Source: Pseudovirgaria hyperparasitica
Lineage: Eukaryota
Direction: 5' to 3' (one strand)
Assembly (NCBI GenBank): GCA_010093815.1
Contig: ML996565.1
DNA length: 64,000 bases
Of the stretch, positions 40,386-63,290 are shown in pieces. Under the pieces are notes generated by a model. That model was not told the origin of the DNA. It made no database searches and saw only the letters and a program-made list of their open reading frames with translations. Made by a program: the position numbers and the translations under genes. Position 1 is the stretch's first letter, and every line of letters starts with the position of its first letter.

Positions 40386-42194
40386 CTAGTCTCTGAGCAC
40401 ATCAGACTCAGGCCTCAGGCTTGCATTCTGAATGCTCGACGGTTGGGAGTATTCGCTGCCACTACGTGCATTACTACCTCGACTCGCGAATCTACCCATA
40501 CTCCTTCTCATGCTTCCAAATGCCGGGCGCGAGTATTTACTTGAACCGGTGGACTTTTTTGTCGTCCTGGCGTATTTTGAACGAGATGAGGTTCCAGGCA
40601 CGTTGGGCCAGTATGGGTCCACTTCGCTCTCGGCGGAAACACTTCTGCGGGAGTCCCCCGTCTGTTTGGGCATCGAGAACTGTGGCTGCTCGGCGATCGG
40701 TGGCAATGTGTAGGTGTCTTGACCCCAGGCCTCGTTCCTTGACTCCGGGCCGTTGGCCTGGGTGGTGAGATGAAGATTGTGTGCTTGAATGACAGGACTG
40801 TAAAATCTTGTTGCGTGCTTATCAAGCTCGTCTCCACGTCCTTGAACCACGTGCCCTCCTCTCAAAGACGACCTCCTCCTAGACGACGACGACGTTTCAT
40901 GGGACTGCATCGATCCTCTCGAGTCGCGCGCATTCGAACCATGATAGACTCGCGACTGCTCTACATCCCCGGTATCCTTCGCCGTCGCACGTTTTCTAGC
41001 CCGTCTGCTGAGGCAGCAGTACACGGCTAGACCGGCGAAGAAGCCGACAAAGAAGAGGACTACGCCAATAGCTGCGATCAGGCCGCTGGACAGTTGGCTT
41101 TGATTCGCATGTTGTGCAACGGCATTTGATGCGGTGTCGGGTGCGTTTGTCTCGTTGGCGTTTGCTGCAGTGGGGTTTGGCATGTTGATTGGTGATGTTT
41201 GTGAGGGTGGTGGTGGTGGTGTTGTTTGAATGGAAGGTTGTATAGATGGTGGTGTTGGTGTCTGCGATGGTGTCGGTATCGATGTGTATTCTGTTGGATC
41301 TATCAATGTTAGAGCTGGTGTCTGCATTGATGATGTTATTGGTGTCTGCAATGAGCTCTGGAGCGAGGGATATCTTGCTGACTCTATTACTGACGGAGCT
41401 GGTGTCTGCAGTGATGGTATTGGTGTCTGCAATGGTGTCCGTATCGACGTGTATTTTGTTGACCCCACTGATGAAAGAGCTGGTGTCTGCAATGAGCTCC
41501 GGATCGAGGTTTTGATGGAAGAATCTACTGGAGTCAACGCCGATGTCAGTACCGATTTCAGCATGGATGTTGGTATTGGTGTCTGGAATGGGGTCTGGAA
41601 TGGTGTCCGTATCGATGTATGTTCCTTTGATTCTACTGATGATGGAGCTGGTGTCTGCATCGATGATTGTAACGGTGTCTGCAATGAGCTCCGGATCGAG
41701 GTTTTGAAGGATGAAACTACTGGCGTCAGCGCCGATTCCAGCGCCGATTGCAGCATCGATGTTGGTATTGGTGTCTGAAACGGTGTCCGTATCGGTGTAG
41801 ATTTCATTGACTCCTCAGTCGTCAGCGCCGAAGTCTGCTTCGACGTTGGCATTGGCGCTTGTAACGAACTCCATATCGAGCTATACACGGACGACTCTAC
41901 AGATCCCAACGCAGACGTTGTTCTCGCTGCCGTCGTCACTACTAGCTCATCCGTCGCCGTGCTCAAGGCCGTCGTTATCGCCGTGTATTCCGAGGTCAAA
42001 ACCGAAGAGTCAATCACCAGCTCACTGGTCGCTTCTTGCACAGGCTCAAAAATATATATGACAATATCAGGCTCTGAGTCGGGCTCGTCTGGATCTGTGT
42101 CTGGGATGCTGGGAAATGGGAATGGGAATGGGAATGGTGTGTCGCTGATTGCTGATGAGAGACCTGTGGCGAGCGGGTTGGATGCGTCGGACAT
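40386..42194 (-). CDS. Ser/Thr/Pro-rich mucin-like single-pass membrane protein
   Basis: 602-aa ORF with repetitive QTP/TSIR units, TM helix GLIAAIGVVLFFVGFFAGLAVYCCL followed by RRARKR, and an S/R-rich tail. Confidence 0.8.
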   Translation of the reverse strand: MSDASNPLATGLSSAISDTPFPFPFPFPSIPDTDPDEPDSEPDIVIYIFEPVQEATSELVIDSSVLTSEYTAITTALSTATDELVVTTAARTTSALGSVESSVYSSIWSSLQAPMPTSKQTSALTTEESMKSTPIRTPFQTPIPTSMLQSALESALTPVVSSFKTSIRSSLQTPLQSSMQTPAPSSVESKEHTSIRTPFQTPFQTPIPTSMLKSVLTSALTPVDSSIKTSIRSSLQTPALSSVGSTKYTSIRTPLQTPIPSLQTPAPSVIESARYPSLQSSLQTPITSSMQTPALTLIDPTEYTSIPTPSQTPTPPSIQPSIQTTPPPPPSQTSPINMPNPTAANANETNAPDTASNAVAQHANQSQLSSGLIAAIGVVLFFVGFFAGLAVYCCLSRRARKRATAKDTGDVEQSRVYHGSNARDSRGSMQSHETSSSSRRRSSLRGGHVVQGRGDELDKHATRFYSPVIQAHNLHLTTQANGPESRNEAWGQDTYTLPPIAEQPQFSMPKQTGDSRRSVSAESEVDPYWPNVPGTSSRSKYARTTKKSTGSSKYSRPAFGSMRRSMGRFASRGSNARSGSEYSQPSSIQNASLRPESDVLRD

Positions 42195-57794: not shown

Positions 57795-59044
57795 ATGAAG
57801 TTCATCACTATCGTGGCGGTGGCTGGTGCTCTGGGTTTTGCTACTGCAATACCAACCCAGGAAAATGGTTACGGCAAAGGCTGGGATTTGCGAAATTTCA
57901 AGAGCCTCGTCGCTTTCGGCGATAGTTACACAGACGAGGTTTGTACAACAACGCGCTAGGCTTCATGCTTGGGGATTGACAATTCGTAGTCAAGACTGGC
58001 ATACTTTTCTGAGAACGGGGCTGCACCACCCGTCGGCACGATTCTACAGGAGGTCAGTAGCAGCACAAAAATTGATAGTCTTTTGGCTCATTGACGCAGG
58101 GCCTCGCAACCTCTACAGGCGGCCGTGTCTGGGCTCGTTATGTCGTGCAATACACTGGGGTCAACCTCTACAATTATGCTGTGTCTGGCGCGGTATGCTC
58201 AAACGATATAACGCCCCGATTCTTATCGGAAGCGCTTGGCCTATTCCCGTCCGTTCAGCAGTATGAGATCCCAGCCTTCATTGCAGACTCCGCATATGTC
58301 TCACCTCAGGGCAACAAGGTGCTCGATATCCCAGCAGACCAGACAGTGTACGCCATATGGATTGGGACGAATGATCTTGGTAACAAGGCATTCCTCACCG
58401 ACTCCCAGGTCAAAGGCAAAACCCTGGTCGACTATATGGACTGCGTCTACAGTGCACTTGACGAGGTGTACAAGAATGGCGGGAGATATTTTGTCGTGAT
58501 GAACGTTGCACCATTGCAACTACTCCCACAGTACGCAGTACCTGAAGCTGGTGGTCTCAGTGCGACGCAATACTGGAAAGATAAGCCCAGTAATATCACT
58601 GAAATAAGCTATCGTATGCTGGAGTCTGTTGTCACTGTCAACGACATCTACAAGTACAAAACGCCGTACGAGGTGAAAGTGGCACAACGCTACCCCGGCG
58701 CACAGTTTGCGGTATTCGACACAAATGCCTTAGTAAGTTGAACCTATCATTCGACGGCTTAACTTTCCTGACCAGTGCCTCAGCTTTCCGACATATACTA
58801 TCATCCCGAGCAATTTTTAAATGGTACTGCTCCTCTAGACGTCACAAGCTCTGTGAACGTGTGTGATGCGGTCACTGAGAAGTGTACGCGTGATCCTAAT
58901 GCAGATGCATATGCATGGTTTGACGCTCTGCATCCGAGTGAACAGACCGATCGCATTATCGCTCGCGAGTTTGTGGAATTGACCAAAGGAGCTAGCAAAT
59001 ACGCGACATACTGGGGCTGCGAAGAAGGAAATTTGAGCACTTAG
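57795..59044 (+). CDS. Secreted SGNH/GDSL esterase (CE16-like acetylesterase)
   Basis: Signal peptide, FGDSY, YAVSGA, WIGTND and WFDALHP blocks. Three introns. Confidence 0.92.
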
Positions 59045-59267
59045 AATAGTGATATAGCATCGATGAGATGATTTGTTCCAAGACATGAAGTTTGTATTGA
59101 TTGTCAAACAGTTTTGATTATCACGTGCATTGCTTAGGTATTTCGGTGTCCGTGCCGCTTTAGCCGCAAACACCGACCTCTCCTTTTGAACGAAACACCA
59201 AGCTCACACCACTAAACAAGTCTCGCTTCTTTGTAGCATTCGCGCAAATCGGATTGAAACATAGATA

Positions 59268-60143
59268 ATGGCGCGCTCTCTTTTCACGAGGAAAAAGGAC
59301 CTTATATATTTGATCTTCTTCTTTTCACATATTCCCATTGTGTTCCGTAAGTACCAGTACATTCCATGGCACACATCCTGAGGTCTCTTATATACAAATG
59401 TTGACCGACCCAACAATGCTGTTGATTGTGAATGTACTATACTGGAAAAAGCCCCGAGTTGACCATTTCTGCAGTGTTCGACTTGACGCCATTGTATCCC
59501 GACTACTTCAAGCCAACATGGATGAAAGATCTGATGACATGGTACATCGCGACGTATAAGGATCAAAACTTCATTTCTCCACAGTACGGGCAACACTCTT
59601 TCCCAATGCGGCTTTGCTAACTTATGACGTGCGTAAGACCTTGGTTCACTGCATGCCGTTGGATGGAGCTCTTCTACCACGCACCGCTTAGTCTGTGGGC
59701 AGTGCGGGCGATCTGGAGAGGTATGTCGAATCCCTCATCTCTTCTAGCCAGAATCTGTTATTGGAGCATGTGCGAGCGATGTGGAAGACGCCGTCAATCA
59801 ATCAAGCTTACCGCAATGTATGCCACGGCCTGATAACAATACGCAGACAACCCCAACCTTCCCATTCACCTTCTTGTCTTCGCAGTGCAAACCGCTGTCA
59901 CGACTTTCATCTGCATCGTCGATTTCGTCAGCTGGGATGTGATCACGACGGATGAGAAGGTGCAGATTGGCACGCTCTATGGACCGTATTTGCTGCTTGG
60001 TACGTTCTATGGCGTGTTCCGTAATGTGTAGGTGATTACTGACGTGGCGTATAGCGGTGCTCATGGGACTAGATATGCTGGGCAGGCTGAAGAAGACGAC
60101 GGGTGCATTAATGGGGAAGAGCAGGGCGCTCAAGAACAGATGA
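59268..60143 (+). CDS. TMEM97/EXPERA (DUF2781) membrane protein
   Basis: MARSLFSRKKDLIYLIFFFSHIP, DLTPLYP, WYIATYKDQNF, WMELFYHAP and LYGPY across four introns. Confidence 0.88.
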
Positions 60144-60327
60144 GCGAGAGTGACGCTAGAGTATCAGGATCGCGTCCAGCATGCGCGTGTAGGACGAGGA
60201 GAAGCATTTGCAGATAAACAAAGTGAAACATCACTTTGACGCCCAACCCCTAAGCGTCCCTACGTCATAGCAGCCAATAACCAATGATAGCAGCATAGCT
60301 ACCTAAACAGGCAATCCAATGACCACC

Positions 60328-61390
60328 ATCGTGGAAGTTCGTGGTCAAAAGTGATGCTCTTGGCTGGACCCTGGCTCAGGACCTGTTTCTAACAGACAAA
60401 TCTGAAACACGCCCTATGATATACGTCATAACAGCCGATAGCCAATAACAGCCACCTCTCATGGCGTACACACTGAAATAGGCAGTCTATAGTGTATTAT
60501 CGTGGAAGTTCGTGGTCAAAAGTGATGGTCTTGGCTGGACCCTGTATACTAATAAATAAACCTGAAACACAGCCTACCCCGTGTCATACGTCATAGTATC
60601 CGATAACCAATAATAGTAATCTCTCTGAGCATAGCCATCGAAATAGGCAATCCTTTAAGACATTATCGTGGAAGTTCGTGGCCAAACTTGATGGTCTTGG
60701 CTGGACCCTGGCTTAAGCCTATTCTGGCCGATAGTGGGTCTAGAAAAGTGAATAGGCTGATAAACAAACATTTGAACAAAGATAACACGCGACGGCGTGT
60801 GTCATAGTGGCCTATAGCTAATAATAGCATCTCCTTGGCCTAGGGCTGACCAAACAGGTAATAATACGACATCATCGTTGAAGTTCGTGGCCAAACTAGA
60901 TGCTCTTGGCTGGACCCTGAAGTAAGACCTGACCTTTTCAAAGTATAGAAGCAGGAGAAGTGAACAGCCGCTAGACAGAGTTAGAAGCGAATAGAGGGCC
61001 TAGGCCTTGGTGAAAGAGGTAATAAACTGTATGGTCATGGTCGTGGAAGTTCGTGGTCAAACTTGATGCTCTTGGCTGGACCCTGAAGTCGAATACAACG
61101 ATCTGAAACATAGGAGTTGAGGAACTGAAACGCCACTAGGAGCGGTATCAGAGCGAATAGAAGGCCAGGCCCTGGTGAAAGAGGCAATAGAGTGTATAGT
61201 CGTGGAAGTTCGTGGTCAAATTTGATGGTCTTGGCTGGACCCTGATGATTCTGAAACAGGAGACCAAACGCCGCTAGAATGGGTTAGAGCGAATGGAAGG
61301 CCCGGGATAGCTGGACGCTGGCGAAAGAGGTAATAGAGTGTATAGTCGTGGAAGTTCGTGGTCAAACTTGATGGTCTTGGCTGGACCCTG
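60328..61390. repeat. Array of seven 46-nt conserved direct repeats with 100-163 nt diverged spacers
   Basis: Cores at 60328, 60499, 60665, 60874, 61040, 61199 and 61345. Consensus RTCGTGGAAGTTCGTGGYCAAAHKTGATGSTCTTGGCTGGACCCTG. Confidence 0.97.
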
Positions 61391-61583
61391 GATACTGTAA
61401 GGCCTGCTGGGAGCTGTTCAAGGAGAAGTCAGTGGAGACAGTGAGAGATGATGCTTGAGTGAACGCTGAGCGTTACTTGAATTCACACACACACACAAGG
61501 TTTGTGTTCGCATCCGCAACGCAAAGCAGTCAGACGTCTCATGATTCTTTCCTCTCCTCTACATGCTGGATGGAGGACTATGA

Positions 61584-62958
61584 CTATGCAAAGTAGCCGT
61601 CAATGCTTCTCCGAAACACCCCGTTCTGTAATCTCCTTCCTATCAGAACGAGCTTGCCTTCACTGCCGCGTGTCTGGTCCGAGTTTCCAGGACTATCCTT
61701 CTCGTCTAGGATATCAAATACTTCACGCACTCCCTGTATCAGCTTCACTCCGCCGCCTTTGACCAATATCCTTCCCTTCAGCCTATGGATTTCGAAGGAA
61801 GCCTCCTGCTGTCCCTCTCCAGGGAGTATATTCTCCCACAGTGTACTCCGTAGCCACGCGTCCAGCTTTTCCAGCCCATTCTCATCAAGCTCAGGCACAC
61901 CCAACGTGACCGTAGAGATCGCGGGATCGAGATGGGAGTGGCCCTTTGATGCAAAGTCTAGCTCTGCGGTAGTTATCGAGTCGTACGCATGCAAGTCTAA
62001 TAGCACTCCTTCTAGCTGTGGTACCTTCGAATGACTTGTGATGTGGACTCGTGCAAGCCCATTCACTGCCTTGATCCGCCCTAGCACATTCTCCAGTTCC
62101 TCATCTGTGACTAAATCGCTTTTATTCAAGACGATGACGTCCGCGTGGCTCAACTGTAGATGTGCTGTTGTAAGCTCCGGGCCATTGTGATCGTGGTCCT
62201 GAGCATCTGGCCTGGTTTCTGGTGATGGTTCGTCGAGAGACTTGAGTACATTCTTGGCGTCGACAAGTGTGACAATGCCGTCGAGGTAGATGGTGCTGCC
62301 TAGACCTTCGTCGACCCAGAATAGGGGTGCGATGTTGCCTGGGTCTGCAAGGCCGGTCGTTTCGAGGAGGATGTAGTCGAAGGCGCCTTGGCGTTCCATG
62401 AGTGATTCTATGGCTGCCACACCGGAGTCTCTGGATGGTGTAAGTACTCGAACGAGGAGTATAGAGGATGATATACTTGACAGAGCAGCATATGCAGCCA
62501 TTCGCAAGTTCGAGCCATTCCTCGACTTCCTGGCCATCTTTGTTGACAGTAAGGGACTTTTCAATGTCCGTCGCTAAGGTATATCAGTGTGAAGATACTT
62601 ATATTAGAGCTAAAGCAGCTCACAATCGCCAAACTCTATGATATATCAGTATACATATGGTTGACAGTGCCGTTGTGTCTACATGCCGTTCAGGATGACG
62701 GCTACCCTTTTGCCGTGTTTTTCATTGAGGATATAGTTAAGCAGAGTGGTTTTGCCTGCTCCGAGATATCCTTATGATGTTCAGTGCCGCATCATCGCAG
62801 TTTGAGAGGTGTAGCACACCTGTGACGATTGTTATAGGCACTTTCGTAATGCTGCTGACTTCTTCTCGCTCCTGGTCTGGTGCTCCGATTGAAGTGGTCG
62901 TCTCGTCGGTAGGTACCAACGATGGGGGTTCGTCATCTAAATCTGCGTCCATGTCCAT
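61584..62958 (-). CDS. ZNG1: CobW/COG0523 zinc metallochaperone GTPase (ZNG1/CBWD)
   Basis: [37 protein letters not shown] and the CobW_C motif HRLKG. Several 5' introns. Confidence 0.93.
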
Positions 62959-63290
62959 TGTATATATTCCAAAAGGCGTTGTCGACGCCCGCTATCTAGT
63001 TGCTGGCTGATGCTAGCATGCAAATGTATTGTGTAAGAGACGCGAAACCCTCTGGGATTTCAAAATAAAGCCTAACGTGTGCGACCAGAGCAATCCAGTT
63101 AATCCTGACACGATGCAGTCTAAATGTGATATTGTGTATATCTTATAAGTGTGCTCAGTGGTTCAAGTGTGTAGGGTCTGATTCTTCTTGTAGCACAACG
63201 ACAACTCGGTGGCCCAAGCGCGCTCGAGCTAGCTACCTACTACCTGCGCGTGCATGTTCGTCCCAGCTCCAAGATACACTCTACATTGAC

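Follow-up and report, generated by a model that had tools for sequence, protein, structure and literature searches.

Two convergent genes flank a tandem array

The DNA analyzed here is a stretch of 64,000 nucleotides (64 kb, in the following "the window") from the fungus Pseudovirgaria hyperparasitica. At positions 60207–61390 (+ strand), it contains an array of seven tandem units between two convergent genes. The upstream gene lies on the + strand, and its last coding exon at 60055–60143, delimited by an intron joint at 59998/60054, ends with the stop codon 60141–60143. A single exon of this gene, the one preceding the last coding exon, shows a weak match to the EXPERA/TMEM97 family (PF05241, E 0.0016), which is below the Pfam cut-off. 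The downstream gene on the − strand encodes a CobW/ZNG1-type GTPase (PF02492, E 1e-20). Its last coding exon, an open reading frame at 61584–62430 with the stop codon at 61584–61586, begins at an intron joint at 62430/62477, and its product shares 98% identity with a CobW-domain protein of Pseudovirgaria hyperparasitica, the next best match having 68%. In the initial annotation, the array was placed between the convergent ends of a TMEM97-like gene and ZNG1. The convergent orientation is borne out by intron joints in RNA-derived contigs for both genes and the ZNG1 assignment by the PF02492 match, whereas the likeness of the upstream gene to TMEM97 stays below the cut-off. The array starts 64 nt past the upstream stop codon, ends 193 nt short of the other stop codon and occupies 82% of the gap between them.

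Four public sequencing runs contain this region. X1 and X2 are DNA, X3 and X4 come from one sample, and none of the four is recorded as RNA. The contigs of X3 and X4 show seven and six intron joints, respectively, with ends GT..AG, CT..AC or CT..GC, and X1 and X2 show none of them; because of these joints, X3 and X4 were taken as RNA-derived. The DNA runs, which are possibly the source of the window itself, tile the array with no mismatches.

Some further features were observed in the neighborhood of the array. The ZNG1-like gene contains a 12-nt micro-exon at 62624–62635 (−), where the contigs of X3 and X4 skip 62574–62686 except for these 12 letters, which occur only once in the window. The intron upstream of this micro-exon has an apparent GC donor instead of GT. 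In the 3′ UTR of the same gene, a short run of CA dinucleotides is found at 61485–61497, between the stop codon and the end of the array. Upstream of the EXPERA-like gene lies a GDSL-type lipase/acylhydrolase gene at 58091–59044 (+; PF00657, E 1.1e-7), for which X3 shows an intron joint at 58050/58098.

Seven copies of a 46-nt box

The repeat finder (family D1), pattern matching, alignment and profile searches all recovered seven copies of a 46-nt box on the + strand, namely box 1 at 60328–60373, box 2 at 60499–60544, box 3 at 60665–60710, box 4 at 60874–60919, box 5 at 61040–61085, box 6 at 61199–61244 and box 7 at 61345–61390. Measured from start to start, their spacings are 171, 166, 209, 166, 159 and 146, and the spacers between them are 125, 120, 163, 120, 113 and 100 nt long. 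When the seven copies are aligned, 39 of the 46 positions are invariant and no indels occur; the invariant parts include the final 16 nt and the 11-nt GAAGTTCGTGG. Any two boxes differ at 1–6 of the 46 positions (2–13%), and box 4 is the sole copy with a T at position 6. The copy number, spacings, spacer lengths and invariant positions reproduce the initial annotation, which had reported seven cores in the same orientation with the same number of invariant positions, no indels and the same periods and spacer lengths. Direct reading further shows that the hexamer TCGTGG is present twice in the box, 10 bp apart.

A degenerate 40-nt pattern of the box, with up to three mismatches allowed, matched seven times in the 64-kb window, while dinucleotide shuffles gave matches in 0 of 100. 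The box profile recognized all seven copies with E values between 8e-18 and 8e-17, and the next best match in the window had an E of 0.92. The repeat unit exceeds the box, since each unit consists of a spacer followed by the 46-nt box in a head-to-tail arrangement. A profile of the whole unit tiles the region from 60207/60208 to 61390 as seven abutting matches, all others in the window having an E of at least 3. The boxes span 1.06 kb and the array 1.2 kb, and the unit period of 146–209 bp approximates one nucleosome repeat. In the alignment of the seven copies, conservation drops sharply in every one of them directly beyond the final box position, and the 5′ edge is fuzzier. A decayed eighth unit 3′ of box 7, at which one alignment hinted, was rejected, as the profiles find none.

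Profile and similarity searches gave no further copies or fragments of the box elsewhere in the 64-kb window, and the window holds no antisense match to it. By repeat finding and folding, no inverted repeat or palindrome was detected in or around the box. Tandem Repeats Finder reported no rows in 59000–63000 at score 30 and none in the array on a whole-window run, which we ascribe to units too diverged for this program. A metagenome scan with the final 21 nt of the box yielded four loci, and the rest of the box accompanied none of them, identifying these as chance matches. Two 13-mers of the box were absent from the literature among the matches listed, and two 11-mers led, among the matches listed, to unrelated papers only (by title on zebrafish, mouse, viruses and the like). 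Among the listed papers that name Pseudovirgaria hyperparasitica, the titles and the starts of the abstracts mention no repeat of this kind.

The window contains a second repeat at 41230–41881 with a spacing of 165–180 bp and sub-units of 81–84 bp. It is located inside a 602-aa Ser/Thr/Pro-rich open reading frame (−, 40386–42194) and represents a coding repeat that is unrelated to the box array.

Two classes of spacers and an upstream island

The spacers fall into two classes. Class A consists of those before boxes 1–4, which are spacer 1 at 60207–60327, situated in the upstream gene's 3′ UTR and covered by RNA-derived contigs, spacer 2 at 60374–60498, spacer 3 at 60545–60664 and spacer 4 at 60711–60873, with 163 nt the longest. 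Spacers 5 (60920–61039), 6 (61086–61198) and 7 (61245–61344), which precede boxes 5–7, make up class B. With the boxes masked, a class A profile finds its four members (E 1e-24 to 2e-29; 1.5e-24 for spacer 1) and none of the three class B spacers, and a class B profile finds its three only, among them spacer 5 (E 1e-29), which the class A profile misses. All nine within-class pairs are similar, with z values of 5.4–22.9 that were reached by none of 200 shuffles, and they show 12–25% mismatch at aligned sites together with many gaps. The 12 between-class pairs gave z values from −0.7 to 4.7, below 1 in five cases, and most of them do not rise above shuffles. Over the spacer pairs as a whole, mismatch at aligned sites amounts to 12–35% with 15–95 gap columns per pair, whereby pair 3–7 was left out for having four aligned positions. 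RIP was rejected as the source of this decay: transitions and transversions are about equally frequent in spacer pairs (e.g., 13/10, 16/10 and 6/5).

One further element is kept in every unit, namely a 12-nt island, NAAANAGGYART, which sits 10–16 nt 5′ of the box. Its copies are located at 60304–60315, 60475–60486, 60640–60651 and 60851–60862 in the class A spacers and at 61012–61023, 61177–61188 and 61323–61334 in class B. Separately, the class A spacers share a 31-nt block (family D2) at 60261–60291, 60422–60452, 60587–60617 and 60798–60828. This block combines CGTCAT with one or two copies of CCAAT, has the look of promoter elements and is absent from the class B spacers.

The initial annotation had described the architecture as CRISPR-like. 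In CRISPR loci, near-identical direct repeats of one orientation are separated by spacers that are unique, short, similar in length and mutually unrelated, and the hosts are prokaryotes or viruses in which cas genes lie close by. The array resembles this in its near-identical direct repeats of one orientation and CRISPR-like length, which alternate with variable stretches. In contrast, its spacers are 100–163 nt long and are diverged copies of one another within two classes, and the host is a fungus with spliceosomal introns, so the comparison does not hold. Combined, these data show that the array is a genuine and undescribed repeat on a solid statistical footing, in which the conserved box is unusually sharp and the spacers are of two unrelated types. 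It is probably a lineage-specific tandem repeat with a unit of ~165 bp.

Transcript-derived contigs and additional units

The contig of the upstream mRNA continues unspliced into box 1, up to 60357 in X3 and 60363 in X4. An X3 contig at 60344–60527 links box 1 to box 2 across spacer 2, and another one at 60742–61044 spans box 4, both unspliced. From the opposite side, the mRNA contig of the ZNG1-like gene reaches 61506 in X4, and in X3 it extends to 61337 and overlaps box 7 in antisense. The X3 and X4 contigs show no joints within the array, and those of X3 are colinear across the spacers. Such contigs cannot reveal the ends, strand or level of an RNA. Parts of the array lack cover in X4 and are thinly covered in X3, and the per-contig depth falls from the flanking genes inward; as contig depth cannot rank the parts and both runs represent one sample, this fall is evidence of neither silence nor termination. 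Contig ends at the boxes occur in the DNA runs too and were therefore interpreted as assembly breaks and not as RNA ends.

Contigs of X1 and X2 and one contig of X4 carry box-bearing units unlike every unit of the window. In the reads on 60470–60550, these extra units resemble unit 2 over ~53–81 nt, with the box and ~29 nt upstream of it being close and the outer flanks differing. One DNA contig of 194 nt holds two box-like pieces 82 nt apart, and the extra unit in X4 is flanked by foreign letters. Therefore, more units exist, whether at other genomic sites or left out of the array when it was assembled. In one X1 contig, 23 loose letters directly before box 2 (60498) were also seen, which we take to be a sequencing-adapter tail and thus a library artefact.

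Coding potential and RNA-level explanations

According to the initial annotation, no open reading frame crosses the array and the periods break frame. The former statement stands as far as long frames are concerned, since the array contains four open reading frames of at least 40 aa (46–55 aa), all on the − strand, the longest having 55 aa. The latter applies to four of the six periods, while 171 and 159 are multiples of three. Stops are absent from frames +2 and −2 in all seven boxes but occur in the spacers; only two of the box variants leave the residue in frame +2 unchanged. A protein-word search with the 50-aa − strand frame through box 5 returned no candidate. A coding exon or repeat peptide was rejected on the basis of the missing long frame, the four frame-breaking periods and the lack of joints within the array.

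Across the whole window, the Rfam search gave no match at gathering score, and in 59500–62500 it gave a single chance match (E 5.6) outside the array. This agrees with the initial annotation, in which the core was not recognized as any known RNA family. ARAGORN found no tRNA genes, and a tRNA or SINE head was rejected on the negative ARAGORN and Rfam results. The folds of six 61-nt box windows were no better than shuffles on both strands (z −0.49 to +0.60), and the same was true for an 801-nt stretch of the array (z −0.47 and −0.02 on the two strands). In consensus folds with 15 and 4 predicted pairs, none of the 15 and none of the 4 pairs displayed compensatory changes. With no fold above shuffles and no covariation on either strand, a hairpin-type precursor (milRNA, H/ACA) was rejected.

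The box contains TGATG, which invites a reading as a box C/D snoRNA. The consensus of these RNAs comprises a C box (RUGAUGA) and a D box (CUGA) at fixed places. In all seven copies the C-like heptamer is without its final A; CTGA directly follows the box in three of the seven, the next CTGA being at variable distances from +7 to +76; and for all 11 C/D combinations tried, 0–3 of the six possible flank pairs could form a terminal stem. This candidate was likewise rejected. A C/D snoRNA would also carry a guide complementary to rRNA or snRNA; the window contains no rRNA of this organism. A structured form of the small-RNA precursor put forward in the initial annotation thus finds no counterpart in folding, covariation or C/D features.

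Small RNAs could in principle be encoded in another way, with one small non-coding RNA gene per unit or with a polycistronic precursor, the latter being the candidate named first in the initial annotation. The promoter element would then be the island, and the box would supply a constant, guide-like segment. The island does lie 10–16 nt before every box, units 1–4 share the further D2 motif block upstream, the X3 contigs represent unspliced RNA over spacers and boxes, and small non-polyadenylated RNAs would be missed by such libraries. However, neither strand gives a fold or covariation, Rfam has no match, the C/D features fail, and the X3 contigs continue without a break over the presumed promoter parts, which makes this explanation distinctly unlikely. 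A special form of it, which we consider highly improbable, would treat each unit as a mini-gene in which the island acts as a promoter for a short unstructured RNA, composed of the constant 46 nt and a freely changing remainder, that base-pairs with a putative target. If it were true, a filamentous fungus would encode, in tandem and at two or more loci, an RNA family with a constant handle and a variable body.

An RNA element that works without structure should also be considered. The box may then be a polyadenylation or termination module, or the site of an RNA-binding protein, in the upstream gene's 3′ UTR and read-through RNA and, in antisense orientation, in those of the ZNG1-like gene. 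This is in line with unit 1 being within the upstream mRNA contig, the X3 contig that bridges boxes 1 and 2, the entry of the ZNG1 contig into box 7, and the G+U-rich, unstructured + strand of the box. Seven copies of such a module would not be absurd, as termination at mouse rDNA occurs mostly at the first of ten sites (PMC3772059). On the other hand, while only the outer units are shown within the flanking-gene contigs, the inner five boxes are no less well preserved; moreover, the contig ends at the boxes are assembly breaks, and X3 and X4 are one sample. We regard an RNA element of this kind as rather unlikely.

A possible mobile-element origin

The box, or a module of 80 bp including it, could also stem from a mobile element, as its terminus or its recognition sequence, with the array built up by repeated insertion or by end-bypass beside earlier copies. 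The joining of one module to two unrelated spacer classes, the sharp 3′ edge next to the fuzzier 5′ edge and the extra copies in the reads would suit such an origin. Helitron termini have a subterminal palindromic hairpin and a fixed flanking base. In the array, the box has no inverted repeat and no fold above shuffles, and the base two places past its last G is a T in one of the seven copies. Additional difficulties are that the 64 kb contain no other copies or fragments, that no inverted repeat or palindrome exists in or around the box, that the spacers within a class are tandem duplicates and not independent insertions, and that no transposase-like open reading frame is nearby. An origin from a mobile element thus appears very unlikely. 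Should the extra units prove to be dispersed irrespective of gene ends, a mobile element or a satellite would become more plausible as the source.

Probable constraint on the box

The initial annotation stressed the contrast between core and spacers, which is real and larger than claimed, with between-class spacers mostly at shuffle level and their boxes equally alike. On average, boxes of class A differ from one another at 3.7 of the 46 positions, those of class B at 1.3 and boxes of different classes at 3.7, and the differences of 1–6 per pair do not rise with spacer divergence. This flat course of box divergence relative to spacer divergence argues for constraint on the box. It resembles a low plateau independent of spacer age, which fits what would be expected of a constrained element with about seven free positions. 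From this contrast between box and spacer, which is one among paralogous copies of a single array, we conclude that the box is probably under constraint of some kind. In our proposal, purifying constraint would keep the 46-bp box and the 12-bp island just upstream of it near-constant, and the remainder of each unit would drift freely. The earlier suggestion that selection or conversion acts on the core was a fair one, conversion being the less likely of the two.

The boxes could nevertheless be alike through concerted evolution, i.e., short-tract conversion or unequal exchange, possibly also with copies elsewhere, in a non-functional satellite or minisatellite that experiences no selection. 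Homogenization is common in tandem arrays, and the array shares with satellites and minisatellites of this type its head-to-tail monomers, which diverge except for one short box. A satellite family would also be present at several loci or in long arrays; the X1, X2 and X4 contigs carry extra units at an unplaced location, and the 64-kb window has no other copies. Two details look as exchange would leave them. Box position 30 reads C, G, G, C, C, G and G along the array, which runs against the spacer grouping, and the extra units in the reads match unit 2 over the box and ~29 nt upstream with differing outer flanks. However, the process would need to halt at the same sharp 3′ edge in all seven copies and to spare the spacers, which are at chance level between the classes. 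The abrupt 3′ end of conservation in all seven copies is easier to reconcile with a discrete element than with conversion tracts, whose ends vary. Furthermore, shared sequences of 46–80 bp are a poor substrate for homologous exchange. Homogenization limited to 46–80 bp with a fixed edge was therefore rated below constraint, and we consider it unlikely that concerted evolution explains the array.

A possible cluster of protein-binding sites

If the box is constrained, the explanation that we favor over the others, tentatively and by analogy, is that the boxes may form a homotypic cluster of recognition sites for one putative sequence-specific DNA-binding factor. Sitting between the convergent genes, this factor might act on passing polymerases or forks, as a terminator or roadblock, a barrier or a boundary; both that it acts on the DNA and what kind of factor it is are guesses by analogy. 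An element that is read on the DNA needs no transcript. The equal preservation of seven boxes, while contigs of the flanking genes reach boxes 1 and 7 only, therefore favors an element at the DNA level. The lack of an RNA fold and of Rfam and tRNA matches was counted in the same direction, as were the duplication of TCGTGG one helical turn apart in units of about nucleosome size, and the extent of the array over most of the convergent gap. Published precedents of same-orientation site clusters downstream of genes (TTF-I and RTS1) were counted as well. The layout of terminator or fork-barrier clusters, with several sites of the same orientation within ~0.5–1 kb downstream of a transcription unit, is also found here. 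Against binding sites on the DNA speaks the length of 46 bp plus the island, which is long for one site. In addition, parts of the array are transcribed (60344–60527 and 60742–61044 in X3), and a role at the RNA level may apply.

Comparison with known systems

The closest layouts to a binding-site cluster come from terminator and barrier elements, and the likeness to them is one of position and layout only. In mouse rRNA genes, the clustering of ten downstream TTF-I sites (T1–T10) is itself functional: the sites are bound cooperatively in chromatin, and most termination takes place at the first (PMC3772059). In the array, too, one site recurs many times downstream of a transcription unit. Unlike the array, the TTF-I cluster belongs to a Pol I system in which the sites are short and the factor, of Myb type, is known (PMC3772059), whereas here Pol II genes, a 46-bp box and a putative factor would be involved. 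In S. pombe RTS1, four motifs within ~450 bp bind the Myb protein Rtf1, with the polarity set by orientation (PMC10473836). RTS1 is likewise a fungal element with several repeated motifs within a few hundred bp; in contrast to the array, it is a replication barrier at the mating-type locus with a known function (PMC10473836), and the two have no sequence likeness.

Two families of repeats are related to the array in a different respect. The RPS/MRS of Candida albicans contain sub-repeats of 80–170 bp which share the 29-bp COM29, whose function is given as unknown in PMC6896093. As in our case, this is a fungal tandem repeat in which the segments differ mutually but carry one short common sequence (PMC6896093). 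RPS forms large arrays on most chromosomes that are nested in a 2-kb unit (PMC6896093), whereas the array here has seven units in one gene gap and a few more in the reads, its 46-bp box is longer, and the sequences are unrelated. Satellites with CENP-B-box-like motifs in nematodes, and Meloidogyne repeats with a common 19-bp box, are reported in PMC3694981 and PMC8097292. These boxed satellites resemble the array in that their monomers, of about nucleosome length, are free to diverge outside a single short box (PMC3694981, PMC8097292). They constitute large centromeric or heterochromatic arrays (PMC3694981, PMC8097292); in contrast, the array here covers 1.2 kb in gene-dense euchromatin between two expressed genes, with no link to a centromere seen.

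Implications

Whether the box is a protein site or a drifting satellite, the evidence does not support a CRISPR-like or guide-RNA system in a fungus. If the array is merely a drifting satellite, it shows how sharply a short segment can persist inside a decaying tandem repeat. If, instead, the box is a protein-recognition site, the array would be a compact natural cluster of such sites between two convergent, expressed genes of a filamentous fungus. It would then offer a handle on how compact fungal genomes separate converging transcription or replication, and the 46-bp box could be used as a bait for the factor.
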